Positions 8,391 through 55,615 of a stretch of DNA of 64,000 nucleotides are shown here, piece by piece (position 1 is the first letter of the stretch; each line of letters starts with the position of its first letter). The notes under the pieces are model-generated. The model saw only the letters and a list, made by a program, of their open reading frames with translations, was not told the DNA's origin and did no database searches. The position numbers were made by a program, and so were the translations under genes. Source of the stretch: Escherichia coli (GTDB lineage: Bacteria > Pseudomonadota > Gammaproteobacteria > Enterobacterales > Enterobacteriaceae); NCBI RefSeq assembly GCF_009931435.1, contig NZ_CP043414.1; one strand, 5' to 3'.

Positions 8391-8425
8391 ACGAACGAAG
8401 CAGTCAGACGACTGCTTCGTTCGTC
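8391..8425. terminator. Hairpin between convergent lysU and ghoT, possibly bidirectional
   Basis: Inverted repeat aacgaacgaagcagtc / gactgcttcgttcgt with 4-nt loop; AT-rich tract on the ghoT-sense side. Confidence 0.5.
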
Positions 8426-8497
8426 GTTCCACAAATCCAGTTTCGAGGAGAGACGCTTCGTTTCAAGATAACCAGCGGGTCCACTCAACTACAGCTC

Positions 8498-8671: not shown

Positions 8672-8698
8672 TTTTTATGTTCTTCTTATCCTTCCTGA

Positions 8699-26661: not shown

Positions 26662-27753
26662 ATGCGTTTTCTGCGCCGACCAATATCGCTGCGCCAACGG
26701 CTGATATTGACCATCGGGGCCATTTTGTTGGTGTTTGAGCTGATCAGCGTCTTCTGGCTATGGCATGAAAGTACCGAGCAGATTCAGCTGTTTGAGCAGG
26801 CGCTACGCGACAATCGTAACAACGATCGCCACATCATGCGTGAGATCCGCGAGGCGGTCGCCAGCCTGATTGTCCCTGGCGTCTTTATGGTCAGCCTGAC
26901 GCTATTTATCTGCTATCAGGCGGTACGCCGCATCACCCGCCCGCTGGCGGAGCTGCAAAAAGAGCTGGAAGCGCGCACCGCCGACAACTTAACGCCCATT
27001 GCCATTCACAGCGCCACCCTCGAAATCGAAGCGGTGGTTTCAGCGTTAAACGATCTGGTCAGTCGCCTGACCAACACGCTGGATAACGAAAGGTTGTTTA
27101 CCGCTGACGTCGCGCACGAACTGCGAACGCCACTGGCGGGGGTGCGTTTGCATCTGGAACTGCTGGCGAAAACGCATCACATTGATGTAGCACCGTTAGT
27201 GGCACGACTTGATCAGATGATGGAGAGTGTCTCCCAGCTACTGCAACTGGCGCGTGCCGGACAGTCATTTTCTTCCGGTAATTATCAACATGTAAAACTG
27301 CTGGAAGATGTCATTCTCCCCTCGTATGACGAACTCAGTACCATGCTCGACCAGCGCCAGCAAACCCTGCTATTACCAGAGAGCGCCGCCGACATCATCG
27401 TTCAGGGTGATGCAACCCTGCTGCGGATGTTATTGCGAAACCTGGTAGAAAATGCCCATCGTTACAGCCCGCAAGGCAGCAACATTATGATTAAGCTGCA
27501 AGAAGATGGCGGAGCGGTCATGGCCGTTGAAGATGAAGGACCGGGTATTGATGAGAGTAAATGCGGGGAGTTGAGTAAAGCGTTTGTACGTATGGACAGC
27601 CGTTATGGCGGGATTGGTCTGGGGTTAAGTATTGTCAGCCGCATTACACAGTTGCATCACGGGCAGTTTTTCCTGCAAAACCGGCAAGAGACTTCTGGCA
27701 CACGGGCCTGGATACGGCTGAAAAAAGATCAGTACGTGGCAAACCAGATATAA
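26662..27753 (+). CDS. basS: Sensor histidine kinase BasS/PmrB
   Basis: 363 aa from the ATG at 26662 (MRFLRRPISLRQRLILTIGAILLV...); the ORF track begins 9 nt upstream at a TTG. Confidence 0.9.
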   Translation: MRFLRRPISLRQRLILTIGAILLVFELISVFWLWHESTEQIQLFEQALRDNRNNDRHIMREIREAVASLIVPGVFMVSLTLFICYQAVRRITRPLAELQKELEARTADNLTPIAIHSATLEIEAVVSALNDLVSRLTNTLDNERLFTADVAHELRTPLAGVRLHLELLAKTHHIDVAPLVARLDQMMESVSQLLQLARAGQSFSSGNYQHVKLLEDVILPSYDELSTMLDQRQQTLLLPESAADIIVQGDATLLRMLLRNLVENAHRYSPQGSNIMIKLQEDGGAVMAVEDEGPGIDESKCGELSKAFVRMDSRYGGIGLGLSIVSRITQLHHGQFFLQNRQETSGTRAWIRLKKDQYVANQI

Positions 27754-27818
27754 AGAAAGCTGCTGACCACCAGCACGCTGAACACGGTAGTTAAACTTTC
27801 ATAAACACGGTTTTTCAT
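27729..27818 (-). CDS. pmrR: PmrR small membrane protein (29 aa), antisense to and overlapping the 3' end of basS
   Basis: Minus-strand translation MKNRVYESLTTVFSVLVVSSFLYIWFATY* matches PmrR as I recall it; below the ORF-track cutoff. Confidence 0.75.
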   Translation of the reverse strand: MKNRVYESLTTVFSVLVVSSFLYIWFATY

Positions 27819-27929
27819 TGCACTCTCCTCCGTTAACCTGGAGGAGAGTATGCGCGTCAGAGATTAAGTGAACCTTAAGAGTTCAATTGGCCTGATAAGA
27901 CAGCGTCACATCAGGCCATCCGTTTCAGC

Positions 27930-33559: not shown

Positions 33560-33715
33560 GCACATGATCGGTAGGCCGGATAAGGCGCTCGCGCCGCATC
33601 CGGCTACGGTGCCGACTGCCTGATGCGACGCTCGCGCGTCTTATCAGGCCTACAAATTCTCGCACCATCCGGCAACGGTGCCTAATGCGACGCTTACCGA
33701 GTCTTATCAGCCCCC
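33560..33715. repeat. BIME/REP cluster of several palindromic units
   Basis: Repeated gcctgatgcgacgc...gtcttatcaggcctac and ggtaggccggataaggcg...ccgcatccggc motifs typical of enterobacterial REP elements. Confidence 0.85.
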
Positions 33716-33775: not shown

Positions 33776-34219
33776 ATGCCGTTAAGTCCCTACCTCTCTT
33801 TTGCTGGTAACTGTTCCGATGCGATTGCCTATTATCAACGCACGTTGGGCGCGGAACTGCTTTATAAAATCAGCTTCGGCGAAATGCCGAAATCAGCGCA
33901 GGACAGCGCCGAGAACTGCCCTTCCGGAATGCAATTTCCCGATACCGCCATCGCTCATGCCAACGTGCGCATTGCCGGAAGCGACATCATGATGAGCGAT
34001 GCCATACCGTCAGGAAAAGCCAGCTACTCCGGCTTTACGCTGGTACTCGATTCGCAACAGGTCGAAGAAGGAAAACGCTGGTTTGACAACCTTGCCGCTA
34101 ACGGAAAAATCGAAATGGCCTGGCAGGAAACTTTCTGGGCGCATGGCTTCGGCAAAGTCACCGATAAATTTGGCGTACCGTGGATGATTAATGTCGTCAA
34201 ACAACAACCAACGCACTAA
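33776..34219 (+). CDS. yjdN: VOC/glyoxalase-family protein YjdN (PhnB)
   Basis: 147-aa ORF matching YjdN/PhnB. Confidence 0.85.
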   Translation: MPLSPYLSFAGNCSDAIAYYQRTLGAELLYKISFGEMPKSAQDSAENCPSGMQFPDTAIAHANVRIAGSDIMMSDAIPSGKASYSGFTLVLDSQQVEEGKRWFDNLAANGKIEMAWQETFWAHGFGKVTDKFGVPWMINVVKQQPTH

Positions 34220-34245
34220 CCCGCCGGGAGGCCCGCCCTCCCGCA

Positions 34246-34296
34246 CTGTCATCGAATTCCCGTTAACTCTTCATCTGTTAGTCACTTTTAGTTAAC
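34246..34296 (+). promoter_or_regulatory. Putative Pho box / phnC promoter
   Basis: CTGTCAT at 34246 and CTGTTAG at 34275 with TTAAC-containing repeats 50-100 bp upstream of phnC; consistent with PhoB control of the phn operon, exact site boundaries uncertain. Confidence 0.5.
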
Positions 34297-34351
34297 AAAA
34301 TCGTCACGATAATCCGCCACGATGGAGCCACTTTTTTAGGGAGGCTGCATC

Positions 34352-35140
34352 ATGCAAACGATTATCCGCGTCGAACAACTGAGCAAAACCTTCAATCAGC
34401 ATCAGGCGCTGCACGCGGTTGATCTGAACATTCATCACGGTGAAATGGTGGCTCTGCTTGGGCCGTCGGGTTCCGGCAAATCCACCCTTTTACGTCACTT
34501 AAGCGGCCTGATTGTCGGCGATAAAAAGCCAGAATGCCGCGTCGAACTGCTGGGCCGCACCGTCCAGCAAAATGGCCGCCTGGCCCGCGATATCCGCAAA
34601 AGCCGCGCCAACACCGGCTACATCTTCCAACAATTCAACCTGGTGAATCGCCTGAGCGTACTGGAGAACGTGCTGATTGGCGCGCTCGGCAGCACGCCGT
34701 TCTGGCGTACCTGTTTTAGCTGGTTCACCCGCGAGCAGAAACAGCGTGCGTTACAGGCACTGACTCGCGTTGGGATGGTGCACTTTGCCCATCAGCGCGT
34801 TTCCACGCTCTCCGGCGGCCAGCAGCAGCGTGTGGCGATAGCCCGTGCGCTGATGCAGCAGGCGAAGGTGATTCTGGCCGATGAACCCATCGCCTCGCTG
34901 GACCCGGAATCGGCCCGCATCGTGATGGATACCCTGCGCGACATCAACCAGAACGACGGCATCACCGTGGTGGTGACGCTGCATCAGGTGGATTACGCCC
35001 TGCGCTACTGCGAACGCATCGTCGCCCTGCGCCAGGGGCACGTCTTCTACGACGGCAGCAGCCAACAGTTTGATAACGAACGTTTTGACCATCTCTACCG
35101 CAGCATTAACCGCGTCGAAGAGAACGCGAAAGCTGCCTGA
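34352..35140 (+). CDS. phnC: Phosphonate ABC transporter ATP-binding protein
   Basis: 262-aa ORF with Walker A (GPSGSGKST), ABC signature (LSGGQQQR) and Walker B. Confidence 0.95.
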
Positions 35141-35164
35141 CATCCCCATCATTGAGGAAAACGA

Positions 35165-36181
35165 ATGAACGCTAAGATAATTGCCTCGCTGGCCTTCACC
35201 AGCATGTTCAGCCTCAGCACCCTGTTCAGCCCGGCACACGCCGAAGAGCAGGAAAAGGCGCTGAATTTCGGCATTATTTCAACGGAATCACAGCAAAACC
35301 TGAAACCGCAATGGACGCCTTTCCTGCAAGATATGGAGAAGAAACTGGGCGTAAAGGTCAACGCCTTCTTTGCTCCGGACTACGCGGGCATTATCCAGGG
35401 GATGCGCTTCAATAAAGTGGATATCGCCTGGTACGGCAATCTGTCGGCGATGGAAGCGGTGGATCGCGCCAACGGTCAGGTCTTCGCCCAGACGGTCGCG
35501 GCGGATGGATCGCCGGGTTACTGGAGCGTGTTGATCGTCAACAAAGACAGTCCGATCAACAACCTGAACGATCTGCTGGCGAAGCGTAAAGATCTCACCT
35601 TTGGCAATGGCGATCCTAACTCCACCTCTGGCTTCCTCGTCCCCGGCTACTACGTCTTCGCCAAAAACAATATCTCCGCCAGCGACTTCAAGCGCACCGT
35701 CAACGCCGGGCATGAAACCAACGCGCTGGCCGTCGCCAACAAGCAGGTGGATGTGGCGACCAACAACACCGAGAACCTCGACAAGCTGAAAACCTCCGCA
35801 CCGGAGAAGCTCAAAGAACTGAAGGTGATCTGGAAATCGCCGCTGATCCCAGGCGATCCGATCGTCTGGCGCAAAAATCTTTCCGAAACCACCAAAGACA
35901 AGATCTACGACTTCTTTATGAACTACGGCAAAACGCCGGAAGAGAAAGCGGTGCTGGAGCGCCTGGGCTGGGCCCCGTTCCGCGCCTCCAGCGACCTGCA
36001 ACTGGTGCCAATTCGCCAGCTCGCGCTGTTTAAAGAGATGCAGGGCGTGAAAGGCAATAAGGGACTGAATGAGCAGGACAAGCTGGCAAAAACCACCGCC
36101 ATTCAGGCGCAACTGGATGATTTGGACCGCCTGAACAACGCGTTAAGCGCAATGAGTTCGGTGAGTAAAGCGGTGCAGTAA
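35165..36181 (+). CDS. phnD: Phosphonate ABC transporter periplasmic binding protein
   Basis: 338-aa ORF with N-terminal signal peptide; matches PhnD. Confidence 0.95.
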   Translation: MNAKIIASLAFTSMFSLSTLFSPAHAEEQEKALNFGIISTESQQNLKPQWTPFLQDMEKKLGVKVNAFFAPDYAGIIQGMRFNKVDIAWYGNLSAMEAVDRANGQVFAQTVAADGSPGYWSVLIVNKDSPINNLNDLLAKRKDLTFGNGDPNSTSGFLVPGYYVFAKNNISASDFKRTVNAGHETNALAVANKQVDVATNNTENLDKLKTSAPEKLKELKVIWKSPLIPGDPIVWRKNLSETTKDKIYDFFMNYGKTPEEKAVLERLGWAPFRASSDLQLVPIRQLALFKEMQGVKGNKGLNEQDKLAKTTAIQAQLDDLDRLNNALSAMSSVSKAVQ

Positions 36182-36187
36182 TGTGCT

Positions 36188-36295
36188 CGATCGGTCCCCT
36201 CTCCCTTGAGGGAGAGGGTTAGGGTGAGGGGGGAAATACGCACGCTGATGCCCTCACCCCGGCCCTCTCCTACAGGGAGAGGGAGAAAACATTAA
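36188..36295. repeat. GC-rich nested palindromic element between phnD and phnE (family not assigned)
   Basis: Three inverted-repeat pairs: cccctctccc/gggagaggg, agggtgagggg/ccctcacccc, ccctctcc/gggagaggg. Confidence 0.6.
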
Positions 36296-36307
36296 ACGGA
36301 GCCAAAC

Positions 36308-37087
36308 ATGCAAACCATCACCATCGCCCCACCCAAGCGCAGCTGGTTCTCGATCTTCAGCTGGGCCGTTGTTCTCGCCGTACTGGTCGTCTCGTGGCAG
36401 GGCGCGGAAATGGCCCCGCTCACGCTGATTAAAGACGGCGGCAACATGGCGACGTTCGCCGCCGACTTCTTCCCGCCCGATTTCAGCCAGTGGCAGGATT
36501 ACCTCACCGAAATGGCCGTCACGCTGCAAATCGCCGTCTGGGGCACTGCGCTGGCAGTCGTTCTCTCCATCCCCTTCGGCCTGATGAGCGCCGAAAACCT
36601 GGTGCCGTGGTGGGTTTACCAGCCCGTTCGCCGCCTGATGGACGCCTGCCGCGCCATTAACGAGATGGTCTTCGCCATGCTGTTCGTGGTCGCCGTCGGT
36701 CTCGGTCCGTTCGCTGGCGTACTGGCGCTGTTTATCCACACCACCGGCGTGCTCTCCAAACTGCTTTCCGAAGCGGTAGAAGCAATTGAACCCGGCCCGG
36801 TGGAAGGTATTCGCGCCACTGGTGCCAACAAGCTCGAAGAGATCCTCTATGGCGTGCTGCCGCAGGTGATGCCGCTGCTGATCTCCTACTCCCTCTATCG
36901 CTTCGAATCCAACGTCCGTTCGGCCACCGTTGTTGGCATGGTCGGCGCTGGCGGGATCGGCGTCACGCTGTGGGAAGCGATTCGCGGTTTCCAGTTCCAG
37001 CAAACCTGCGCCCTGATGGTGCTGATTATCGTCACGGTCAGCCTGCTGGATTTCCTCTCTCAACGGTTGCGTAAGCACTTTATCTGA
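36308..37087 (+). CDS. phnE: Phosphonate ABC transporter permease, intact reading frame
   Basis: Uninterrupted 259-aa polytopic membrane ORF matching PhnE. Confidence 0.9.
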
Positions 37088-37107
37088 TAAGCGAGGCATT
37101 GATAGCT

Positions 37108-37833
37108 ATGCACTTGTCTACACATCCGACCAGCTACCCAACACGCTATCAGGAGATAGCCGCAAAACTTGAGCAGGAGCTTCGTCAACACTACCGCTGC
37201 GGCGACTATCTTCCCGCCGAGCATCAACTGGCGGCACGCTTTGAGGTGAATCGCCACACCCTGCGCCGCGCCATCGACCAACTGGTGGAAAAAGGCTGGG
37301 TACAGCGCCGTCAGGGCGTCGGCGTGCTGGTGCTGATGCGCCCGTTCGATTACCCGCTCAACGCCCAGGCGCGTTTTAGCCAGAACCTGCTGGATCAGGG
37401 TAGCCATCCCACCAGCGAAAAACTGCTGTCGGTGCTGCGCCCGGCCTCCGGCCACGTCGCTGACGCGCTGGGGATAACCGAGGGCGAGAACGTTATCCAC
37501 CTGCGCACCCTGCGTCGGGTCAACGGCGTCGCACTCTGTTTAATCGACCACTACTTTGCGGACCTCACTCTCTGGCCGACGCTGCAACGCTTCGACAGCG
37601 GCTCGCTGCACGATTTTTTGCACGAGCAAACGGGAATTGCGCTGCGCCGCAGCCAGACGCGGATCAGCGCCCGCCGCGCCCAGGCCAAAGAGTGCCAGCG
37701 TCTTGAAATTCCGAATATGTCGCCGCTGCTGTGCGTGCGCACCCTTAACCACCGTGACGGTGAAAGCAGCCCGGCGGAGTACTCCGTCAGCCTGACGCGC
37801 GCCGACATGATTGAATTCACCATGGAGCACTGA
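37108..37833 (+). CDS. phnF: GntR-family repressor of the phn operon
   Basis: 241 aa from the ATG at 37108 (MHLSTHPTSYPTRYQEIAAK...); N-terminal GntR HTH. Confidence 0.9.
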   Translation: MHLSTHPTSYPTRYQEIAAKLEQELRQHYRCGDYLPAEHQLAARFEVNRHTLRRAIDQLVEKGWVQRRQGVGVLVLMRPFDYPLNAQARFSQNLLDQGSHPTSEKLLSVLRPASGHVADALGITEGENVIHLRTLRRVNGVALCLIDHYFADLTLWPTLQRFDSGSLHDFLHEQTGIALRRSQTRISARRAQAKECQRLEIPNMSPLLCVRTLNHRDGESSPAEYSVSLTRADMIEFTMEH

Positions 37834-38286
37834 ATGCACGCAGATACCGCGACCCGCCAGCACTGGATGTCCGTGCTGGCGCACAGCCAACCGGCTGAAC
37901 TGGCTAACCGCCTTAAAGCGCTAAACATCACCGCCGACTATGACATGATCCGCGCCGCCGAAACCGGCCTGGTACAGATTCAGGCGCGAATGGGTGGCAC
38001 CGGCGAACGCTTTTTTGCTGGCGACGCTACGCTCACCCGCGCCGCTGTACGCCTTACTGACGGCACGCTCGGCTACAGCTGGGTGCTGGGGCGCGACAAA
38101 CAGCACGCCGAACGCTGCGCGCTGATTGACGCGCTGATGCAGCAATCTCGCCACTTTCAAAACTTATCAGAAACCCTTATTGCCCCGCTGGACGCTGACC
38201 GTATGGCACGCATTGCCGCACGCCAGGCCGAAGTGAACGCCAGTCGGGTCGACTTCTTTACGATGGTTCGCGGAGACAACGCATGA
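37834..38286 (+). CDS. phnG: C-P lyase core complex subunit PhnG
   Basis: 150-aa ORF starting immediately after the phnF stop (tgaATG). Confidence 0.9.
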
Positions 38287-38867
38287 CCCTGGAAACCGCT
38301 TTTATGCTTCCCGTGCAGGATGCCCAGCACAGTTTTCGTCGCCTGTTAAAGGCCATGAGCGAGCCGGGCGTGATTGTCGCCCTGCATCAACTCAAACGCG
38401 GCTGGCAGCCGCTGAATATCGCCACCACCAGCGTGCTGCTGACGCTGGCCGATAACGACACGCCGGTGTGGCTTTCTGCGCCATTAAGTAACGATATCGT
38501 CAGCCAGAGCCTGCGTTTTCATACCAACGCGCCGCTGGTCAATCAGCCGGAACAGGCGACCTTCGCAGTGACGGATGAGGCGATTGCCAGCGAGCAGCTC
38601 AACGCCCTTTCCATCGGCACCGCCGTTGCGCCGGAAGCCGGTGCGACGTTGATTTTACAGGTCACCAGCCTGAGCGGCGGACGCATGCTGCGCCTCACCG
38701 GCGCGGGTATTGCCGAAGAACGGATGATCGCCCCGCAACTGCCGGAGTGCATTCTGCACGAACTCACCGAGCGCCCGCACCCGTTCCCGCTCGGCATCGA
38801 CCTGATCCTGACCTGCGGCGAGCGCCTGCTGGCTATCCCGCGAACCACTCATGTGGAGGTGTGCTGA
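38283..38867 (+). CDS. phnH: C-P lyase core complex subunit PhnH
   Basis: 194-aa ORF with 4-nt overlap to phnG. Confidence 0.9.
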
Positions 38868-39931
38868 TGTACGTTGCCGTGAAAGGGGGCGAAAAGGCGA
38901 TCGACGCCGCCCACGCCCTGCAAGAGAGCCGACGCCGGGGCGATACTGATTTGCCTGAACTGAGCGTCGCCCAGATTGAACAGCAGCTTAATCTCGCGGT
39001 GGATCGCGTGATGACCGAAGGCGGCATTGCCGACCGTGAACTGGCGGCACTAGCGCTGAAACAGGCCAGCGGCGATAACGTTGAAGCGATTTTCCTGTTG
39101 CGCGCCTACCGCACGACGCTGGCAAAGCTGGCGGTGAGCGAGCCGCTCGACACCACCGAGATGCGGCTCGAACGCCGTATTTCGGCGGTTTATAAAGACA
39201 TTCCCGGCGGCCAGTTGCTTGGCCCGACCTACGACTACACCCATCGCCTGCTCGATTTCACCCTGCTGGCGAATGGCGAAGCGCCGACGCTGACCACCGC
39301 CGACAGCGAGCAAGCCCCATCGCCGCACGTTTTCAGCCTGCTGGCGCGTCAGGGGCTGGCGAAGTTTGAAGAGGATAGCGGCGCACAGCCGGACGACATC
39401 ACCCGCACGCCGCCGGTTTACCCCTGCTCACGTTCTTCCCGTTTGCAGCAGCTCATGCGCGGAGACGAAGGCTATTTGCTGGCGCTGGCCTACTCCACCC
39501 AGCGTGGTTACGGACGCAATCACCCGTTCGCAGGCGAAATCCGCAGTGGCTATATCGACGTGTCTATTGTGCCGGAAGAGCTGGGATTTGCGGTGAACAT
39601 CGGCGAACTGCTGATGACCGAGTGTGAAATGGTCAACGGTTTTATCGACCCGCCGGATGAGCCGCCGCACTTCACGCGCGGCTACGGGCTGGTGTTCGGC
39701 ATGAGCGAGCGCAAAGCGATGGCAATGGCGCTGGTTGACCGCGCTCTACAAGCCCCGGAGTACGGCGAGCACGCGACAGGCCCGGCGCAGGATGAAGAGT
39801 TCGTGCTGGCGCATGCCGACAACGTCGAAGCCGCAGGCTTTGTCTCGCACCTCAAACTCCCGCACTACGTCGATTTCCAGGCCGAACTGGAGCTACTCAA
39901 ACGTCTGCAACAGGAGCAGAACCATGGCTAA
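38867..39931 (+). CDS. phnI: C-P lyase subunit PhnI (ribose-1-methylphosphonate 5-triphosphate synthase component)
   Basis: 354 aa from the ATG at 38867 ([16 protein letters not shown]...), overlapping the phnH stop; the ORF-track start at 38747 is an extension. Confidence 0.9.
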   Translation: MYVAVKGGEKAIDAAHALQESRRRGDTDLPELSVAQIEQQLNLAVDRVMTEGGIADRELAALALKQASGDNVEAIFLLRAYRTTLAKLAVSEPLDTTEMRLERRISAVYKDIPGGQLLGPTYDYTHRLLDFTLLANGEAPTLTTADSEQAPSPHVFSLLARQGLAKFEEDSGAQPDDITRTPPVYPCSRSSRLQQLMRGDEGYLLALAYSTQRGYGRNHPFAGEIRSGYIDVSIVPEELGFAVNIGELLMTECEMVNGFIDPPDEPPHFTRGYGLVFGMSERKAMAMALVDRALQAPEYGEHATGPAQDEEFVLAHADNVEAAGFVSHLKLPHYVDFQAELELLKRLQQEQNHG

Positions 39932-40769
39932 TCTGAGCGGCTACAACTTTGCCTACCTCGACGAGCAGACCAAACGTATGATCCGCCGCGCCATCTTAAA
40001 AGCGGTGGCGATCCCCGGTTATCAGGTGCCGTTTGGCGGGCGCGAGATGCCGATGCCATACGGCTGGGGAACTGGTGGTATCCAGCTTACCGCCAGCGTG
40101 ATTGGCGAAAGCGACGTGTTGAAGGTGATTGACCAGGGCGCGGATGACACCACCAACGCCGTATCAATTCGCAACTTTTTCAAGCGCGTGACCGGGGTAA
40201 ACACCACTGAACGTACGGATGATGCGACGCTTATCCAGACGCGCCACCGCATCCCCGAAACGCCGCTGACCGAAGATCAGATCATTATTTTCCAGGTGCC
40301 GATCCCCGAACCGCTGCGCTTTATCGAGCCGCGCGAAACGGAGACCCGCACTATGCACGCGCTGGAGGAGTACGGCGTGATGCAGGTGAAACTGTATGAA
40401 GATATCGCCCGCTTCGGTCATATCGCCACCACCTACGCCTATCCGGTGAAGGTGAACGGACGCTACGTAATGGACCCATCGCCGATCCCGAAATTTGATA
40501 ACCCGAAAATGGACATGATGCCCGCCCTGCAACTGTTTGGCGCGGGGCGCGAGAAGCGTATTTATGCGGTGCCGCCGTTTACCCGCGTGGAAAGCCTCGA
40601 TTTCGACGATCATCCGTTCACCGTTCAGCAGTGGGATGAACCCTGCGCCATCTGCGGATCGACCCACAGCTATCTCGATGAAGTGGTGCTGGATGACGCC
40701 GGAAACCGCATGTTTGTCTGTTCCGATACCGATTATTGCCGCCAACAGAGCGAGGCGAAAAGCCAATGA
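39924..40769 (+). CDS. phnJ: C-P lyase PhnJ (radical-SAM-dependent C-P bond cleavage enzyme)
   Basis: 281 aa from the ATG at 39924 (MANLSGYNFAYLDEQTKRMIRR...); C-terminal Cys cluster CxxC...C...C. Confidence 0.9.
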   Translation: MANLSGYNFAYLDEQTKRMIRRAILKAVAIPGYQVPFGGREMPMPYGWGTGGIQLTASVIGESDVLKVIDQGADDTTNAVSIRNFFKRVTGVNTTERTDDATLIQTRHRIPETPLTEDQIIIFQVPIPEPLRFIEPRETETRTMHALEEYGVMQVKLYEDIARFGHIATTYAYPVKVNGRYVMDPSPIPKFDNPKMDMMPALQLFGAGREKRIYAVPPFTRVESLDFDDHPFTVQQWDEPCAICGSTHSYLDEVVLDDAGNRMFVCSDTDYCRQQSEAKSQ

Positions 40770-41524
40770 ATCAACCGTTACTTTCGGTCAATAACCTGAC
40801 CCACCTCTACGCACCGGGCAAAGGCTTCAGCGACGTTTCTTTTGATTTATGGCCGGGGGAAGTGCTGGGCATCGTCGGGGAATCCGGTTCCGGGAAGACC
40901 ACGCTGCTGAAATCAATCTCCGCGCGCCTGACGCCGCAGCAGGGGGAGATTCGCTATGAAAACCGTTCCCTCTATGGCATGAGCGAAGCCGACCGCCGCC
41001 GTTTACTGCGCACCGAATGGGGCGTGGTACATCAGCATCCGCTCGACGGCCTGCGTCGCCAGGTCTCGGCAGGCGGCAATATCGGCGAACGGCTGATGGC
41101 GACCGGGGCGCGTCATTACGGCGATATTCGCGCCACCGCGCAGAAGTGGCTGGAAGAGGTGGAGATTCCCGCCAACCGGATCGACGACCTGCCGACCACT
41201 TTTTCCGGCGGTATGCAGCAGCGTTTGCAGATTGCCCGCAACCTGGTGACGCATCCGAAGCTGGTGTTTATGGATGAACCGACCGGCGGGCTGGATGTAT
41301 CAGTGCAAGCGCGCCTGCTCGATCTGCTGCGCGGTCTGGTGGTGGAGCTGAACCTGGCGGTGGTGATTGTCACCCACGATCTGGGCGTCGCCCGCCTGCT
41401 GGCGGACCGTTTGCTGGTGATGAAGCAAGGGCAAGTGGTGGAGAGTGGGTTAACCGACCGCGTGCTCGACGACCCGCATCACCCGTATACCCAGCTGCTG
41501 GTGTCATCGGTTTTGCAGAATTGA
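40766..41524 (+). CDS. phnK: C-P lyase-associated ABC-type ATPase PhnK
   Basis: 252 aa from the ATG at 40766 (MNQPLLSVNNL...); Walker A GESGSGKTT. Confidence 0.9.
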   Translation: MNQPLLSVNNLTHLYAPGKGFSDVSFDLWPGEVLGIVGESGSGKTTLLKSISARLTPQQGEIRYENRSLYGMSEADRRRLLRTEWGVVHQHPLDGLRRQVSAGGNIGERLMATGARHYGDIRATAQKWLEEVEIPANRIDDLPTTFSGGMQQRLQIARNLVTHPKLVFMDEPTGGLDVSVQARLLDLLRGLVVELNLAVVIVTHDLGVARLLADRLLVMKQGQVVESGLTDRVLDDPHHPYTQLLVSSVLQN

Positions 41525-41535
41525 GCCTTGCTTGT

Positions 41536-41690
41536 GTCGGGTGGCGCTGCGCTTACCCGACCTACGGTACATGTAGGCCGGATAAGGCGTAGCCGCCATC
41601 CGGCTTATCAGGCCTACAAAACCATCGTAATACATTGATATTGATTCATTTGTAGGCCGGATAAGGCGCAGCCGCCATCCGGCAAAAACA
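41536..41690. repeat. BIME/REP cluster inside the phn operon, between phnK and phnL
   Basis: Tandem/inverted copies of gtaggccggataaggcg...ccgccatccggc and ttatcaggcctac REP motifs. Confidence 0.85.
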
Positions 41691-41703
41691 CGAAGAGGCC
41701 AAA

Positions 41704-42384
41704 ATGATCCGCGTCGAAAACGTCAGTAAAACCTTCATCCTGCACCAACAAAACGGCGTGCGCCTGCCCGTCTTACAACGCGCCTCGCTCACCGTCAACG
41801 CGGGCGAATGCGTGGTGCTCCACGGCCATTCCGGCAGCGGCAAATCAACCCTGCTGCGCTCGCTGTACGCTAACTATCTGCCCGACGAAGGGCAAATTCA
41901 GATCAAACATGGTGACGAGTGGGTAGACCTGGTCACCGCGCCAGCGCGCAAAGTGGTGGAAATCCGCAAAACCACCGTCGGCTGGGTGAGCCAGTTTCTG
42001 CGGGTCATCCCGCGTATTTCGGCGCTGGAAGTGGTAATGCAGCCGCTGCTCGATACCGGCGTTCCGCGTGAAGCCTGCGCCGCTAAAGCCGCCCGTCTGC
42101 TCACCCGCCTGAACGTGCCGGAACGTCTGTGGCACCTGGCGCCATCGACCTTCTCCGGCGGCGAACAGCAGCGCGTCAACATCGCGCGCGGCTTTATCGT
42201 CGATTACCCCATTCTGCTGCTCGACGAACCTACTGCCTCGCTGGACGCCAAAAACAGCGCCGCGGTGGTGGAACTGATCCGCGAAGCTAAAACCCGCGGC
42301 GCAGCCATCGTCGGCATCTTCCACGACGAAGCCGTACGCAATGACGTCGCCGACCGCCTCCACCCAATGGGAGCCTCTGCATGA
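41704..42384 (+). CDS. phnL: C-P lyase-associated ABC-type ATPase PhnL
   Basis: 226-aa ORF with Walker [10 protein letters not shown]. Confidence 0.9.
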
Positions 42385-43517
42385 TTATCAATAACGTCAA
42401 ACTGGTGCTGGAAAACGAAGTGGTACACGGTTCGCTGGAGGTGCAGGACGGCGAAATTCGCGCCTTTGCCGAAAGCCAGAGCCGCCTGCCAGAAGCGATG
42501 GACGGCGAAGGTGGCTGGCTGCTGCCGGGGCTGATTGAGCTGCATACCGACAACCTCGATAAATTCTTCACTCCGCGCCCGAAAGTGGACTGGCCTGCCC
42601 ACTCAGCGATGAGCAGCCACGACGCGCTGATGGTGGCGAGCGGCATCACCACGGTGCTGGATGCCGTGGCGATTGGCGACGTGCGCGACGGCGGCGATCG
42701 GCTGGAGAATCTGGAGAAGATGATCAACGCCATCGAAGAGACGCAGAAACGCGGGGTCAACCGCGCCGAGCACCGTCTGCACCTGCGCTGTGAACTGCCG
42801 CATCACACTACGCTGCCGCTGTTTGAAAAACTGGTGCAGCGCGAGCCGGTCACGCTGGTGTCGCTGATGGACCACTCGCCGGGCCAGCGCCAGTTCGCCA
42901 ATCGCGAGAAGTATCGCGAATATTACCAGGGCAAATACTCGCTCACCGATGCGCAGATGCAGCAGTACGAAGAGGAACAACTGGCGCTTGCCGCACGCTG
43001 GTCGCAGCCGAATCGCGAAACCATCGCCGCAATATGCCGCGCGCGACAAATTGCCCTCGCCAGCCACGATGATGCTACGCACGAGCACGTTGCCGAATCC
43101 CACCAGCTTGGCAGCGTAATCGCCGAATTTCCCACCACGTTCGAAGCGGCGGAAGCTTCGCGCAAGCATGGCATGAATGTATTGATGGGCGCGCCGAATA
43201 TTGTGCGCGGCGGTTCGCACTCCGGCAACGTGGCGGCAAGCGAACTGGCACAGCTTGGCCTGCTGGATATCCTCTCTTCCGACTACTACCCCGCCAGCCT
43301 GCTCGATGCGGCATTTCGCGTCGCCGATGACGAGAGCAACCGCTTTACGCTGCCGCAGGCGGTGAAGCTGGTGACTAAAAATCCGGCGCAGGCGCTTAAT
43401 CTTCAGGATCGCGGGGTGATTGGCGAGGGCAAACGCGCCGACCTGGTGCTGGCGCATCGCAAGGGCAACCACATTCATATCGATCACGTCTGGCGTCAGG
43501 GTAAAAGGGTGTTCTGA
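42381..43517 (+). CDS. phnM: PhnM, amidohydrolase-family ribosyl-methylphosphonate triphosphate diphosphatase
   Basis: 378-aa ORF with 4-nt overlap to phnL; matches PhnM. Confidence 0.9.
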
Positions 43518-44074
43518 TGACGGGAAAACTGATTTGGTTAATGGGGGCCTCTGGCTCCGGAAAAGACAGTCTGTTGACGGAACTCCGCCAGCGGGAACAA
43601 ACTCAGCTACTGGTAGCGCATCGCTACATCACGCGCGCCGCCAGCGCCGGAAGTGAAAACCATATCGCCCTGAGCGAGCAGGAGTTTTTTACCCGCGCGG
43701 GGCAGAACCTTCTGGCCTTAAGCTGGCACGCCAACGGCCTGTATTATGGCATCGGCGTCGAGATTGACCTCTGGCTACACGCCGGATTCGACGTGGTGGT
43801 CAACGGCTCACGCGCGCATTTGCCGCAGGCGCGGGCGCGCTATCAATCGGCTCTGCTGCCTATCTGTTTACAGGTGTCACCGGAGATCCTGCGCCAGCGT
43901 CTGGAAAACCGTGGTCGTGAAAATGCCAGTGAAATTAACGCCCGGCTGGCGCGCGCTGCCCGCTATACTCCTCAGGATTGTCTTACGCTCAATAATGACG
44001 GCAGCCTGCGCCAGTCGGTCGACAAGCTGCTGACGCTGATTCATCAGAAGGAGAAACACCATGCCTGCTTGTGA
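43517..44074 (+). CDS. phnN: Ribose 1,5-bisphosphate phosphokinase PhnN
   Basis: 185-aa ORF with P-loop GASGSGKDS; overlaps the phnM stop. Confidence 0.9.
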
Positions 44075-44495
44075 GCTTCGTCCGGCCACGCAGTACGACA
44101 CCGACGCGGTTTACGCGCTGATTTGTGAGCTAAAACAGGCGGAGTTTGACCACCATGCGTTTCGCGTGGGCTTTAACGCCAACCTGCGCGACCCGAACAT
44201 GCGCTACCATCTGGCGCTGCTGGAAGGCGAAGTTGTCGGCATGATCGGCCTGCATTTGCAGTTTCATCTGCATCATGTCAACTGGATCGGCGAAATTCAG
44301 GAACTGGTGGTGATGCCGCAGGCGCGCGGTCTGAACGTCGGCAGTAAATTACTGGCATGGGCCGAAGAAGAAGCCCGCCAGGCCGGGGCCGAAATGACCG
44401 AGCTTTCCACCAACGTCAAGCGCCACGACGCGCACCGTTTCTATCTGCGCGAAGGCTACGAGCAGAGCCACTTCCGCTTCACCAAGGCGCTGTAA
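44061..44495 (+). CDS. phnO: Aminoalkylphosphonate N-acetyltransferase PhnO (GNAT)
   Basis: 144-aa ORF overlapping phnN by 14 nt. Confidence 0.9.
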
Positions 44496-44496
44496 C

Positions 44497-45255
44497 ATGA
44501 GCCTGACCCTCACACTTACTGGCACTGGCGGCGCACAGGGTGTTCCCGCATGGGGCTGTGAGTGCGCGGCCTGCGCCAGAGCGCGGCGCTCACCGCAGTA
44601 TCGCCGCCAGCCATGCAGCGGCGTCGTGAAGTTTAACGACGCGATCACCCTGATCGACGCCGGACTGCACGATCTCGCCGATCGCTGGTCGCCCGGATCG
44701 TTCCAGCAGTTTTTGCTGACGCACTACCATATGGATCACGTGCAGGGGCTGTTTCCGCTGCGCTGGGGCGTGGGCGATTCGATCCCGGTCTACGGCCCGC
44801 CGGATGAACAGGGCTGCGACGATCTGTTTAAACATCCGGGCCTGCTTGATTTCAGCCACACGGTGGAGCCATTTGTGATGTTTGATTTGCAGGGATTACA
44901 GGTCACGCCGCTGCCGCTCAACCATTCGAAACTCACTTTCGGCTATCTACTGGAAACGGCACATAGCCGGGTGGCGTGGCTGTCTGACACCGCAGGCCTG
45001 CCGGAAAAAACGGTGAAATTTTTATGCAATAATCAGCCACAGGTAATGGTGATTGATTGCTGCCACCCACCGCGCGCGAATTCGCCACGCAATCACTGTG
45101 ATTTAAACACCGTGCTGGCGCTGAATGAAGTTATCCGCTCGCCGTGCGTGGTTCTGACACATATCAGCCATCAGTTTGATGCGTGGCTGATGGAGAACAT
45201 ACTGCCGTCAGGGTTTGAGGCGGGGTTTGATGGGATGGAGATTGGGGTGGAGTGA
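44497..45255 (+). CDS. phnP: Metallo-beta-lactamase-fold cyclic phosphodiesterase PhnP
   Basis: 252-aa ORF with HxHxDH motif ([10 protein letters not shown]). Confidence 0.9.
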
Positions 45256-45289
45256 TGGGTGAGGGGCGATGCCTGCTCTAAACTCAACA

Positions 45290-45598
45290 TCACCGCCCAT
45301 ACTCATCTTCCATTCTCCGCTCTTCATCTTCTAGCTGCCGACGCTCCTGATCCAGCTGGCGCTGGCGATCGTCCAGCTGCCTGCGGCGATCTTCATATTG
45401 TCTGCGCCGATCGTCGTTCACTTCACGCTGCCAGCCGTCGTCGCGCCAATCTTCATAGTCTCGCCCACGGTCAGGGTTATAAGCATCGTTAATCGCCTGC
45501 TGAATATTGCCAATGGTGTCGTCGATAATATCGGCCTGGGCCGGAACGGTGGACAGCGTGAGCAGGGTGAATAAAAGAAATAGCGGAAAACGTTTCAT
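45290..45598 (-). CDS. yjdP: Small secreted low-complexity protein YjdP (Arg/Asp/Glu/Gln-rich)
   Basis: 102-aa ORF with signal peptide (MKRFPLFLLFTLLTLSTVPAQA) and charged repeats (RRRQYEDRRRQLDDRQRQLDQERRQLEDEE). Confidence 0.8.
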   Translation of the reverse strand: MKRFPLFLLFTLLTLSTVPAQADIIDDTIGNIQQAINDAYNPDRGRDYEDWRDDGWQREVNDDRRRQYEDRRRQLDDRQRQLDQERRQLEDEERRMEDEYGR

Positions 45599-45666: not shown

Positions 45667-45984
45667 TCAATTTTTCCGCTGCTCTATTGCCGTAATCGCC
45701 TCCACGCGTTGTTGATGACGACCGCCTTCGTACTGCGCGCCCAGCCACGCATCCACAATCATTTTTGCCAGTTCGAGGCCAACCACTCGTGAACCAAAAG
45801 CCAGTGCAACTTCACTGGCGTAATGCGGATAATCAGTGCGCTCTGACGACCTGGTTTCTTTATCAATCCCCTCACTCATTGACCATGAATAAAAGGCTGG
45901 CACAGCAACGCAGAATCCTGCGGTGCCAGCGACATGACCGCCCATTGCTCCGGTACGTTTTTTAATAAGAAACACCGGTTGCAT
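45667..45984 (-). pseudogene. rpiB: rpiB-like remnant: the C-terminal ~45 residues and a short N-proximal block match ribose-5-phosphate isomerase B, but the central part is missing and the N-terminus is diverged
   Basis: Translation ...ETRSSERTDYPHYASEVALAFGSRVVGLELAKMIVDAWLGAQYEGGRHQQRVEAITAIEQRKN matches RpiB segments as I recall them, but the ORF is 105 aa against ~149 aa for RpiB, with no match to the central catalytic region. Confidence 0.55.
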
Positions 45985-46236
45985 TGATTAATTGTGCTCA
46001 GTATTTGCCGAAGTACAATATATATAATAAATATATAAAACACCTCATATTATTTACAGAGATAATAAATTCGCGTACTTTTCCCTCTTCAGCACAAATG
46101 CCTAATAAAATGGCTCGTTCCGCTCACACTTCCACTTATTAAAATCGCAATTTCCCAATTATGATAACGCCAGCTTTAAATGACGTATTTTGCATGGATT
46201 ACATATTTACGACACAAATGATAAATGGAGATTTAT

Positions 46237-48222
46237 ATGAATAACTCTCGGTTATTCCGTTTGAGCAGGATTGTTATTGCGTTAACTGCCGCCAGCGGCA
46301 TGATGGTAAATACCGCTCACGCAACAGATGAAGCGAAAGCCGCCACTCAATATACCCAACAGGTTAATCAGAATTACGCCAAATCATTACCGTTTAGCGA
46401 TCGTCAGGATTTTGACGATGCCCAGCGCGGATTTATCGCCCCGCTGCTGGATGAAGGTATTCTGCGCGATGCGAATGGCAAAGTTTACTACCGCGCGAAT
46501 GATTACAAATTTGATATTAATGCCGCTGCGCCGGAAACCGTAAACCCCAGCCTGTGGCGTCAGTCGCAGATCAACGGCATTTCTGGTCTGTTCAAAGTCA
46601 CCGATAAAATGTATCAGGTGCGCGGCCAGGATATCTCTAACATTACATTCGTTGAGGGCGAGAAAGGCATTATTGTTATCGACCCACTGGTGACGCCGCC
46701 TGCCGCAAAAGCCGCACTTGACCTTTACTTCCAGCATCGTCCGCAAAAACCGATTGTTGCTGTTATTTACACCCACAGCCACGCCGACCATTATGGCGGT
46801 GTGAAAGGCATTATCTCTGAAGCGGATGTTAAATCTGGCAAAGTGCAGGTGATCGCTCCGGCAGGCTTTATGGACGAAGCCATCAGCGAAAACGTGCTGG
46901 CGGGTAACATCATGAGCCGCCGTGCGCTCTACTCTTACGGTCTGTTACTGCCGCACAACGCGCAAGGCAACGTGGGCAACGGCCTGGGCGTGACGCTGGC
47001 AACGGGCGACCCGAGCATTATTGCGCCAACCAAAACGATTGTCAGAACTGGCGAGAAGATGATTATCGACGGCCTGGAGTTTGACTTCCTGATGACTCCG
47101 GGTAGCGAAGCGCCAGCCGAAATGCACTTCTATATTCCGGCCCTGAAAGCCCTGTGTACCGCCGAAAACGCCACGCATACCCTGCACAACTTCTACACCC
47201 TGCGCGGCGCGAAAACCCGCGATACCAGCAAGTGGACAGAGTATCTGAACGAAACGCTGGATATGTGGGGTAACGACGCGGAAGTACTGTTTATGCCGCA
47301 CACCTGGCCGGTCTGGGGCAATAAGCATATCAATGATTATATTGGTAAATATCGCGATACTATCAAATACATTCACGACCAGACCCTGCACCTGGCGAAC
47401 CAGGGTTACACCATGAATGAAATTGGCGACATGATTAAGCTGCCACCTGCGCTTGCCAATAACTGGGCCAGCCGCGGCTATTACGGTTCTGTTAGCCACA
47501 ACGCCCGTGCAGTGTATAACTTCTATCTCGGCTATTATGACGGCAATCCAGCTAACCTACATCCGTACGGTCAGGTGGAGATGGGCAAACGTTACGTGAA
47601 AGCGCTGGGCGGTTCCGCCCGTGTCATCAACCTGGCGCAAGAAGCGAACAAGCAAGGGGATTACCGCTGGTCAGCAGAGTTGCTGAAACAGGTGATTGCC
47701 GCCAATCCGGGTGACCAGGTGGCGAAGAATCTGCAAGCGAATAACTTTGAACAGCTGGGCTATCAGGCCGAGTCCGCCACCTGGCGCGGTTTCTACCTGA
47801 CCGGCGCAAAAGAGCTGCGCGAAGGGGTGCATAAGTTCAGCCACGGCACCACGGGTTCTCCGGACACCCTTCGCGGGATGTCGGTCGAAATGCTGTTCGA
47901 CTTTATGGCCGTTCGCCTCGATAGCGCGAAAGCCGCAGGTAAGAATATCAGCCTGAACTTCAATATGAGCAACGGCGATAACCTCAACCTGACGCTGAAC
48001 GATAGCGTGCTTAACTACCGTAAAACGCTGCAACCTGAAGCCAACGCCTCTTTCTACATCAGCCGTGAAGATCTTCACGCCGTGCTGACCGGACAAGCCA
48101 AAATGGCGGATCTGGTAAAAGCGAAGAAAGCCAAAATTATTGGCAATGGCGCGAAACTGGAAGAAATTATTGCCTGTCTGGATAATTTCGATTTGTGGGT
48201 GAATATCGTAACCCCAAATTAA
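46237..48222 (+). CDS. yjcS: Putative alkyl/aryl sulfatase (metallo-beta-lactamase fold) YjcS
   Basis: 661 aa from the ATG at 46237 ([29 protein letters not shown], signal peptide); HxHxDH motif ([10 protein letters not shown]). Confidence 0.9.
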
Positions 48223-53467: not shown

Positions 53468-55615
53468 ATGAAAAAAGTCGTCACGGTTTGCCCCTATTGC
53501 GCATCAGGTTGCAAAATCAACCTGGTCGTCGATAACGGCAAAATCGTCCGGGCGGAGGCAGCGCAGGGCAAAACCAACCAGGGTACCCTGTGTCTGAAGG
53601 GGTATTATGGCTGGGATTTCATTAACGATACCCAGATCCTGACCCCGCGCCTGAAAACCCCCATGATTCGTCGCCAGCGTGGCGGCAAACTCGAACCTGT
53701 TTCCTGGGATGAGGCACTGAATTACGTTGCCGAGCGCCTGAGCGCCATCAAAGAGAAGTACGGTCCGGATGCCATCCAGACGACCGGCTCCTCGCGTGGT
53801 ACGGGTAACGAAACCAACTATGTAATGCAAAAATTTGCGCGCGCCGTTATTGGTACCAATAACGTTGATTGCTGCGCTCGTGTCTGACACGGCCCATCGG
53901 TTGCAGGTCTGCACCAATCGGTCGGTAATGGCGCAATGAGCAATGCTATTAACGAAATTGATAATACCGATTTAGTGTTCGTTTTCGGGTACAACCCGGC
54001 GGATTCCCACCCTATCGTGGCGAATCACGTAATTAACGCTAAACGTAACGGGGCGAAAATTATCGTCTGCGATCCGCGCAAAATTGAAACCGCGCGCATT
54101 GCTGACATGCACATTGCACTGAAAAACGGCTCGAATATCGCGCTGTTGAATGCAATGGGCCATGTCATTATTGAAGAAAATCTGTACGACAAAGCGTTCG
54201 TCGCTTCCCGTACAGAAGGCTTTGAAGAGTATCGTAAAATCGTTGAAGGCTACACGCCAGAGTCGGTTGAAGATATCACCGGCGTCAGCGCCAGTGAGAT
54301 TCGTCAGGCGGCGCGGATGTATGCCCAGGCGAAAAGCGCCGCCATCCTGTGGGGCATGGGTGTAACCCAGTTCTACCAGGGCGTGGAAACCGTGCGTTCT
54401 CTGACCAGCCTCGCGATGCTGACCGGTAACCTCGGTAAGCCGCATGCGGGTGTAAACCCGGTTCGTGGGCAAAACAACGTGCAGGGTGCCTGCGATATGG
54501 GCGCGCTGCCAGATACTTACCCTGGCTACCAGTACGTGAAAGATCCGGCTAACCGCGAGAAATTCGCCAAAGCCTGGGGTGTAGAGAGTCTGCCAGCACA
54601 TACCGGTTATCGCATCAGCGAGCTACCGCATCGCGCAGCGCATGGTGAAGTGCGTGCCGCGTACATTATGGGCGAAGATCCGCTACAAACTGACGCGGAG
54701 CTGTCGGCAGTACGTAAAGCCTTTGAAGATCTGGAACTGGTCATCGTTCAGGACATCTTTATGACCAAAACCGCGTCGGCGGCGGATGTCATTTTACCGT
54801 CAACGTCGTGGGGCGAGCATGAAGGCGTGTTTACTGCGGCTGACCGTGGCTTCCAGCGTTTCTTCAAAGCAGTTGAACCGAAATGGGATCTGAAAACGGA
54901 CTGGCAGATTATCAGTGAAATCGCCACCCGTATGGGTTATCCGATGCACTACAACAACACCCAGGAGATCTGGGATGAGTTGCGTCATCTGTGCCCGGAT
55001 TTCTACGGTGCGACTTACGAGAAAATGGGCGAACTGGGCTTCATTCAGTGGCCTTGTCGCGATACTTCAGATGCCGATCAGGGGACTTCTTATCTGTTTA
55101 AAGAGAAGTTTGATACTCCGAACGGTCTGGCGCAGTTCTTCACCTGCGACTGGGTAGCGCCAATCGACAAACTCACCGACGAGTATCCGATGGTACTGTC
55201 AACGGTGCGTGAAGTCGGTCACTACTCTTGCCGTTCGATGACCGGTAACTGTGCGGCACTGGCGGCGCTGGCTGATGAACCTGGCTACGCACAAATCAAT
55301 ACCGAAGACGCCAAACGTCTGGGTATTGAAGATGAGGCATTGGTTTGGGTGCACTCGCGTAAAGGCAAAATTATCACCCGTGCGCAGGTCAGCGATCGTC
55401 CGAACAAAGGGGCGATTTACATGACCTACCAGTGGTGGATTGGTGCCTGTAACGAGCTGGTTACCGAAAACTTAAGCCCGATTACGAAAACGCCGGAATA
55501 CAAATACTGCGCCGTGCGCGTCGAGCCGATCGCCGATCAGCGCGCCGCCGAGCAGTACGTGATTGACGAGTACAACAAGTTGAAAACTCGCCTGCGCGAA
55601 GCGGCACTGGCGTAA
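53468..55615 (+). CDS. fdhF: Formate dehydrogenase H (selenocysteine- and molybdopterin-containing); in-frame UGA at 53885-53887 decoded as Sec
   Basis: Two ORF-track fragments (53468-53887, 53936-55615) are in the same frame and joined by a single TGA; flanking sequence ...NNVDCCARV-U-HGPSVAGLHQSVGNGAMSNAINE... matches FdhF around Sec140. Confidence 0.95.
53885..53932 (+). promoter_or_regulatory. SECIS stem-loop directing SelB-dependent selenocysteine insertion at the fdhF UGA
   Basis: UGA followed immediately by cacggcccatcggttgcaggtctgcaccaatcggtcggtaatggcg, matching the canonical fdhF SECIS hairpin (loop GGUC). Confidence 0.9.

Follow-up and report, generated by a model that had tools for sequence, protein, structure and literature searches.

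Start codons, cistron junctions and a REP-type spacer in the phn operon of an Escherichia coli-like genome

The genes phnF to phnP lie in the window (the whole 64,000-nt stretch of DNA analysed here) as two packed blocks, F-G-H-I-J-K and L-M-N-O-P, within which each downstream ATG stands -14 to +1 nt from the upstream stop codon. Several kinds of sequence evidence, all independent of the overlap geometry, identify the annotated ATGs as the true starts. We regard as probable the combined reading in which these starts and the two blocks go together with a handing-on of ribosomes between neighbouring cistrons, and in which a spacer filled with REP-type units between phnK and phnL breaks the chain. 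The junction overlaps themselves are real and conserved but ordinary, and existing tables already list them for E. coli and for hundreds of further species.

The locus is an intact C-P lyase operon of the ordinary kind, from an Escherichia coli-like genome, with phnC to phnP co-directional and in the canonical E. coli order phnCDEFGHIJKLMNOP (Table 1). Co-linear megablast matches of the operon were obtained in 5,386 E. coli genomes at a coverage of at least 80%, and gene for gene it corresponds to the annotated operons of RMDEC465 and K-12. NCBIfam equivalogs for PhnG, PhnH, PhnK, PhnL, PhnM, PhnN, PhnO, and PhnP all exceed their curated cut-offs, and the Pfam scores reach 514.7 bits for PhnI and 501.1 bits for PhnJ; judged from its sequence, the window encodes a complete and probably functional C-P lyase pathway. 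The junctions of the transporter genes are loose, with gaps of 24 nt (C/D), 126 nt (D/E), and 20 nt (E/F). Opposite phnM, phnJ, and phnE there are long antisense ORFs; they gave no Pfam matches, and we attribute them to the G+C content of 60%. The sequence CTGTTAGTCACTTTTAGTTAACAAAATCGTCAC at 34276-34308 resembles the phnC Pho box, from which a single polycistronic mRNA would be expected; a generic Pho-box pattern search allowing up to three mismatches did not pick it up and was uninformative.

Table 1. Genes of the phn operon and REP-type units of the phnK-phnL spacer, in positions of the window.
Feature	Position	Strand	Junction	Profile match or remark
phnC	34352-35140	+		Transporter gene; ORF co-linear with annotated RMDEC465 and K-12
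phnD	35165-36181	+		Transporter gene; ORF co-linear with annotated RMDEC465 and K-12
phnE	36308-37087	+		Transporter gene; ORF co-linear with annotated RMDEC465 and K-12
phnF	37108-37833	+	TGA stop followed directly by phnG ATG, 0-nt gap	GntR-type regulator
phnG	37834-38286	+		ATG is the first start codon of the open frame; TIGR03293 equivalog, 178.9 bits
phnH	38283-38867	+	ATGA, 4-nt overlap with phnG	TIGR03292, 205 bits
phnI	38867-39931	+	TGATG, 1-nt overlap with phnH	PF05861
phnJ	39924-40769	+	8-nt overlap with phnI (ATGGCTAA)	PF06007
phnK	40766-41524	+	ATGA, 4-nt overlap with phnJ	TIGR02323 equivalog, 410 bits
phnK-phnL spacer	41525-41703	+		179 nt; sole true gap from phnF to phnP
REP-type unit 1	41574-41589	+		In phnK-phnL spacer
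REP-type unit 2	41601-41616	-		In phnK-phnL spacer
REP-type unit 3	41653-41668	+		In phnK-phnL spacer
phnL	41704-42384	+		TIGR02324, residues 1-218 on profile positions 1-218
phnM	42381-43517	+	ATGA, 4-nt overlap with phnL	NF011981, residues 1-378 on profile positions 1-378
phnN	43517-44074	+	TGATG, 1-nt overlap with phnM	NF007485
phnO	44061-44495	+	14-nt overlap with phnN (ATGCCTGCTTGTGA)	NF007530, residues 1-144 on profile positions 1-144
phnP	44497-45255	+	Begins 1 nt past phnO TAA	TIGR03307

An earlier note had listed the start/stop overlaps from phnG to phnP as one run; all of its coordinates and lengths are correct, but the run is interrupted between phnK and phnL, and the junction of phnF with phnG had been missed. 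Eight of the ten phnF-phnP junctions fall within -8 to +6 nt, as against 24% (707/2,987) of unidirectional E. coli gene pairs (PMC10666635), which corresponds to a rough binomial P of 3e-4, or 0.012 if a background of 40% within operons is assumed. Stop-to-start distances of -8 to about +10 nt are found at F/G, G/H, H/I, I/J, J/K, L/M, M/N, and O/P, and not at N/O (-14) and K/L (+179). With the exception of K/L, the distances are identical in annotated K-12 MG1655 and RMDEC465, and the same values for K-12 have already been published (Huber et al., PMC10666635 supplement). Over 1,695 species G@H, H@I, I@J, J@K, L@M, and M@N each have a median distance of -1 or -4, and median distances of -4 or -1 hold for Phn pairs over more than 200 species (PMC10666635). 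Moreover, tight G-H-I-J-K junctions with a GGAG-type Shine-Dalgarno (SD) sequence are annotated in Sinorhizobium, Variovorax, Paracoccus, Mesobacillus, Thermus, and Natronorubrum. The junction segments from -20 to +5 carry six substitutions relative to K-12 where 13.9 would be expected (P = 0.013), and none of these changes touches an SD core, a start codon, or a stop codon.

All ten starts from phnG to phnP carry an SD sequence of their own, with duplex energies of -3.2 to -10.6 kcal/mol and a spacing of 4-9 nt. The earlier note had proposed scoring the ribosome binding sites (RBSs) and starts at the junctions, and every chosen start indeed turned out to have the best SD among nearby candidates (background median, -2.0 kcal/mol). 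Nine junctions are tight (F/G to J/K and L/M to O/P) and have their SD within the final codons of the upstream gene; in seven of them the duplex lies beyond the most negative 10% of the background (-4.9 kcal/mol). phnG is preceded by GGAG, 6 nt upstream and within phnF, and phnH by GGAG within the 3′ end of phnG; phnI has the strongest SD of the operon, GUGGAGGUG (-10.6 kcal/mol), made by the last codons of phnH. AGGAG stands 7 nt upstream of phnJ, GAGG 10 nt upstream of phnK, and AAGAGG, at the 3′ end of the phnK-phnL spacer, serves phnL. The SD of phnN is weak to moderate and near the threshold (AAGGGUG, -4.7 kcal/mol), that of phnO is strong (AAGGAG, -8.8 kcal/mol), and that of phnP is the weakest of the run (AAGG, -3.2 kcal/mol). 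Predicted in a 140-nt context, the accessibility of the junction RBSs ranges from median to high (34th to 91st percentile of the in-gene background), which leaves room for independent initiation at each of them.

The spacer between phnK and phnL holds a further hairpin beside its three REP-type units, and its RNA is predicted to fold with -88.9 kcal/mol (z = -6.5). Copies of the REP motif are scattered through the window, six against 0.03 expected, and the TAGGCCGGATAAGGCG-type motif also occurs at 33572-33652, where it matches Rfam naRNA4, and at 56401. Since the REP-filled spacer breaks the chain of close junctions, phnL is predicted to initiate independently from its own SD, and the spacer could also serve as a boundary of mRNA stability or decay.

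The earlier note had preferred the chosen starts to longer open reading frames, a preference with which SD scores, Pfam boundaries, N-terminal conservation, PDB chains, and the substitution pattern all agree. If the longer frames were real, phnI would start at GTG 38747, phnJ at TTG 39735, and phnK at TTG 40736, with overlaps of 121, 197, and 34 nt; the frames are indeed open upstream to these codons. These starts are rejected here and the reading is given almost no credence. SD sequences are absent from all three positions (0, -2.2, and 0 kcal/mol). The same note had mistaken the codons at 38747 and 39735 for in-frame ATGs; upstream of phnJ, the ATGs that are in fact in frame stand at 39792 and 39813. 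Position 1 of PF05861 falls on the chosen phnI ATG, and position 2 of PF06007 on residue 6 counted from the chosen phnJ ATG. The N-terminal sequence MYVAVKGGE of PhnI is kept across phyla, from Met1 in Alpha- and Betaproteobacteria; the sequences of Bacillota, Thermus, and a haloarchaeon have a single additional Gly. PhnI aligns over residues 1-354 with PDB chains 7z15_C (about 99% identity) and 4xb6_C, and PhnJ over residues 1-281 with 7z15_D and 4xb6_D, in each case with the same Met start. PhnI coordinates Zn through its N-terminal NH2 in the open state resolved by cryo-EM (PMC9947105), which also speaks against an extended protein. Comparison with two E. coli genomes shows 16 substitutions within the phnI and phnJ extension regions; every one is synonymous for the upstream gene and non-synonymous for the extension, and TTG 39735 is TCG in K-12.

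Translational coupling at the phn junctions is plausible, given the SDs within the upstream genes, the above-average conservation of the junctions, and experiments on other E. coli pairs with -4/-1 overlaps (PMC6728339, PMC10666635). On reaching the end of one cistron, a ribosome would pass to the start of the next, only a few nucleotides off, through termination-reinitiation or through SD-assisted initiation that is locally favoured. This would tie the output of neighbouring cistrons together and, for PhnG, PhnH, PhnI, PhnJ, and PhnK, would help the Phn(GHIJ)2K complex to assemble in balanced proportions and possibly during translation. The earlier note had ascribed such coupling to a multisubunit machinery; this fits G/H, H/I, I/J, and J/K, which join subunits and are marked as complex partners (CMPLX yes) in the E. 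coli table (PMC10666635), but F/G, L/M, M/N, N/O, and O/P link a regulator or separate enzymes. Within the complex PhnK is in contact with PhnL (PMC9947105), yet this interacting pair is the only one that is not closely spaced. Huber et al. give -8 to +10 nt as the range predictive of reinitiation (PMC10666635); the 14-nt overlap of N/O lies outside it, and phnO has its strong SD. Coupling in E. coli pairs is lost with spacers of 20-40 nt (PMC6728339, PMC10666635). The polarity of delta-phnO789::kan on phnP (PMC3463581) was considered as evidence of coupling and set aside, as transcriptional and translational polarity are inseparable in it. A search of the literature found no translational-coupling experiment on phn genes, no ribosome profiling under Pi starvation, and no N-terminal sequencing.

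The close junctions could also reflect compact packing only, each cistron being initiated de novo by free 30S subunits at its own internal SD, with co-expression arising from the shared Pho-regulated mRNA and the -4/-1 geometry being a neutral or weakly selected by-product of base sharing between start and stop codons. We hold this to be possible, although rather unlikely. It accords with the SD at each of the ten downstream starts, with RBS accessibility that is not predicted to be low, and with the tight junctions between Phn enzymes that do not interact. Among five native E. coli pairs at -4 that have been tested, bioB/bioF was initiated de novo, but the other four were coupled (PMC6728339). 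The ribosome profiling of Saito et al. (2020) under depletion of the ribosome recycling factor (RRF), as summarised elsewhere (PMC10666635, PMC12548453), was taken to argue against reinitiation as the dominant route in E. coli and for de novo initiation as the commoner one. Against packing alone stand the conservation of the -4/-1 medians across species, the junction sequences being more conserved than the operon average, and the 4.5-fold enrichment of short distances for subunits of heteromeric complexes in E. coli (PMC10666635). Coupling by RNA unfolding, a recognised model (PMC12548453) in which the ribosome on the upstream gene melts structure that hides the downstream SD and AUG, appears improbable here. 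The RBSs of phnH, phnI, phnN, and phnP are of only median predicted accessibility, as this model would have it, but those of phnG, phnJ, phnK, phnM, and phnO rank in the top 15% or so, and none is predicted to be unusually buried in the 140-nt context, which is weak evidence either way. The RNA-structure test for sequestered junction RBSs in that context gave no signal and does not discriminate. Handing-on of ribosomes within the two blocks is the reading that we prefer.

It is tempting to go further and view F-G-H-I-J-K and L-M-N-O-P as two separately tuned translational trains, with the variable REP cluster as a deliberate decoupler and mRNA-decay boundary whose copy number among strains tunes their ratio, although we think this unlikely. 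If it were true, PhnL and the downstream enzymes could be set at a level different from that of the core complex, and differences in REP copy number, seen as spacers of 110, 167, and 179 nt, would tune that ratio between strains. Beyond this, the analysis has little import other than correct annotation, in that the phn gene starts are confirmed; the junction geometry is textbook operon architecture, already known from the tabulated distances of K-12 and of Phn COG pairs in 1,695 species.

Compared with known systems, the operon has the same 14 genes in the same order as that of K-12 and B, with a nucleotide identity of 92-97% per gene to K-12 and of up to 98.6% to RMDEC465. The 179-nt spacer between phnK and phnL is 110 nt long in K-12 and 167 nt in RMDEC465, and REP copy number differs. 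Here phnE is an intact ORF of 259 aa, with eight gap columns against the K-12 phnE pseudogene, and is free of the 8-bp duplication to which K-12 owes its cryptic state (PMC3463581), so that the operon is predicted to be Phn+. The spacer resembles REP/BIME elements, which are imperfect extragenic palindromes of about 35 nt, dispersed in the genome and often clustered with alternating orientation: it likewise has three TAGGCCGGATAAGGCG-type palindromes of alternating orientation, although here the Rfam naRNA4 model stays below its gathering score. With the coupled pairs of Huber et al. (2019, 2023) the phn junctions share the -4, -1, and -8 overlaps and an SD within the upstream gene; they differ in that the phn pairs were tabulated only, that N/O (-14) lies outside the predictive range, and that no complex partners are joined at five of the tight junctions.

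The 34352-45255 (+) region is co-linear with the E. coli phnCDEFGHIJKLMNOP operon and shows a gene-for-gene correspondence to the annotated operons of strain RMDEC465 and K-12 MG1655. A 9-kb query matched 5,409 of 5,426 complete E. coli genomes, with 97% identity to the closest and 90-95% to most. PhnG, H, K, L, M, N, O, and P all score above the curated cut-offs of their NCBIfam equivalog models, PhnI and PhnJ are recognised by Pfam, and chains of PDB 4xb6 and 7z15 align end to end with the PhnI and PhnJ of the window. The phnE gene (36308-37087) is an intact 259-aa ORF free of the 8-bp duplication responsible for the K-12 pseudogene, which predicts a phosphonate-proficient operon.

Every junction distance was recomputed from the window sequence, and all those listed in the earlier note are right. 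Its account of a phnG-phnP run is confirmed with small corrections, as it left out the abutment of phnF and phnG and the wide phnK/phnL gap, which divides the genes into two blocks instead of one run. The transporter genes of the same operon are loosely packed, with gaps of 24 nt (C/D), 126 nt (D/E), and 20 nt (E/F). Eight of the ten phnF-phnP junctions lie within -8 to +6 nt, a range that holds 707 of 2,987 (24%) unidirectional E. coli gene pairs (PMC10666635); a rough binomial test of this excess gives P = 3e-4, or 0.012 at a generous in-operon background of 40%.

Junctions and other features of the window. K-12 distances are from Supplementary file 3, and COG-pair medians over 1,695 species from Table S4, of Huber et al. 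2023 (PMC10666635); RNA matches are at the Rfam gathering threshold.
Feature	Position	Strand	Distance	K-12 (nt)	COG-pair median (q1/q3; n)	Remark
phnF/phnG			0-nt gap	0		TGAATG
phnG/phnH			4-nt overlap	-4	-1 (-4/+1; 233)	ATGA
phnH/phnI			1-nt overlap	-1	-1 (-1/+2; 230)	TGATG
phnI/phnJ			8-nt overlap	-8	-4 (-7.2/-3.7; 204)	ATGGCTAA
phnJ/phnK			4-nt overlap	-4	-4 (-4/-3.2; 218)	
phnK/phnL			179-nt gap	+110		
phnL/phnM			4-nt overlap	-4	-4 (-4/+7; 133)	
phnM/phnN			1-nt overlap	-1	-1	
phnN/phnO			14-nt overlap	-14		
phnO/phnP			1-nt gap	+1		
Antisense ORF, 294 aa	42603-43487	-				opposite phnM; no Pfam match
Antisense ORF, 200 aa	40164-40766	-				opposite phnJ; no Pfam match
Antisense ORF, 281 aa	36254-37099	-				opposite phnE; no Pfam match
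Terminator-like hairpin, T-rich tail	38624-38657	+				inside phnH
sRNA STnc630	27722-27887	-				Rfam match
REP-derived naRNA4	33574-33650	+				Rfam match
SECIS element	53880-53934	+				Rfam match; directly 5' of large ORF 53936-55615 (fdhF selenocysteine site)

The start codons chosen in the earlier note are right, and their support is independent of the overlap argument by which it had defended them, coming from Shine-Dalgarno (SD) scores, profiles, N-termini, structure, and substitutions. The "in-frame ATGs" that it placed at 38747 and 39735 are actually GTG and TTG; the real in-frame ATGs 5' of the phnJ start, at 39792 and 39813, are preceded by weak SDs (-3.0 and -2.4 kcal/mol, respectively), and every substitution in their region is non-synonymous in that frame. 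The open frames of phnG, H, L, M, N, O, and P offer no possible start ahead of the chosen ATG. Upstream alternatives exist only for phnF, I, J, and K and are without an SD (0 to -4.3 kcal/mol), while the chosen ATGs carry the best nearby SD (-6.6 to -10.6 kcal/mol for phnI, J, and K). In scans of the extended ORFs, position 1 of the Pfam PhnI profile falls on residue 41, exactly ATG 38867, and position 2 of the PhnJ profile on residue 69, or residue 6 when numbered from ATG 39924. Sinorhizobium, Variovorax, and Paracoccus keep the PhnI N-terminus MYVAVKGGE from Met1 on, and Mesobacillus, Thermus, and the archaeon Natronorubrum have MGYVAVKGG or the close variants MGYVTVRGG and MGYVAVKAG; in the cryo-EM open state, the NH2 group at the PhnI N-terminus is reported to be a ligand of Zn (PMC9947105). 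In the phnI and phnJ extension regions, all 16 substitutions relative to K-12 and RMDEC465 are synonymous in the frame of the upstream gene and non-synonymous in the extension frame, and K-12 has TCG in place of TTG 39735. SD scores, profile boundaries, N-terminal conservation, and substitutions together rule out the longer-ORF starts for phnI and phnJ. Natronorubrum PhnJ (7929-8918 of its phn locus, L008) is annotated with ~30 extra residues ahead of the conserved YNYAYLDE motif; these may be a genuine extension or reflect a wrongly annotated start.

The 3'-terminal codons of each upstream gene form the SD of the start that follows. Across the -20 to +5 windows of the nine tight junctions there are 6 substitutions relative to K-12, where the operon-wide rate would predict 13.9 (P = 0.013), and SD cores, start codons, and stop codons are unchanged. 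Six distant plasmid-borne phn operons, including Bacillota, Thermus, and haloarchaeal examples, have tight annotated G-H-I-J-K junctions with a GGAG-type SD at each, and K/L is often among their loosest links. At 38260-38286, and at the homologous junctions of the distant phn loci L003 and L005, the final codons of phnG (…R-G-D/E…) double as the phnH SD GGAG, as seen for E. coli, Sinorhizobium, and Paracoccus, so that the PhnG C-terminus and the phnH ribosome-binding site (RBS) share constrained bases.

From this geometry and conservation, and by analogy, the best-supported reading is that ribosomes probably pass from cistron to cistron across the -8 to +1 junctions, where internal SDs would assist the hand-over, and that this may keep PhnG, H, I, J, and K in balance for the assembly of Phn(GHIJ)2K. 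The translational coupling proposed in the earlier note thus appears reasonable and partly supported. The main rival, which we consider rather unlikely, is that ribosomes initiate independently at each SD and the compact packing has no coupling role. It draws on the predicted accessibility of the junction RBSs, median to high against the in-gene background, on the bioB/bioF counter-example (PMC6728339), and on RRF-depletion profiling as summarised in PMC10666635 and PMC12548453; the predictions show no RNA structures at the junctions that would make initiation strictly dependent on upstream translation. As for hand-over, its stoichiometry rationale cannot explain F/G, L/M, M/N, N/O, and O/P, since a regulator and separate enzymes are joined there, and it fits awkwardly with the case of PhnK and PhnL: they bind the complex as a double dimer (PMC9947105) yet are the sole pair without close spacing.

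The phnK-phnL spacer (41525-41703) holds three REP-type units in + - + orientation, of a motif dispersed in the window, and its predicted fold (-88.9 kcal/mol, z = -6.5) is far stabler than that of shuffled sequence. Strains differ in its length: K-12 has 110 nt and RMDEC465 has 167 nt, compared with 179 nt here. Reinitiation is not expected across 179 nt (PMC10666635), so initiation at phnL must rely on its own SD, AAGAGG, 5 nt upstream.

Within 34000-45300, the G+C content of the operon is ~56-62% (~60% from phnE on) versus 47-52% in the flanks, and its genes, at 92-97% identity, are more diverged from K-12 than a neighbouring 8-kb stretch is from E. coli at large (95-99% identity to nearly all genomes). 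Such contrasts suggest an unusual history of the locus, either an old horizontal origin or recombination. The high G+C most likely produces the antisense ORFs as artefacts, and the hairpin in phnH is probably due to chance, given 20 terminator-like sites against 14.1 expected in shuffles. Further downstream (45667-45984 (-) and 46225-48222 (+)), yjdP and yjcS have no more than a 105-aa rpiB remnant between them, and, like RMDEC465, this region lacks the als operon found 3' of rpiB in K-12.

A literature search found no direct phn coupling test, Pi-starvation ribosome profiling, or N-terminal sequencing. Among native E. coli -4 pairs, none of them from phn, the Huber group found four of five to be coupled experimentally, and coupling was lost with spacers of 20-40 nt (PMC6728339, PMC10666635). 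Huber et al. 2023 also flagged G/H, H/I, I/J, and J/K as complex-forming (PMC10666635), and the tight phn junctions are a feature already known and ordinary.
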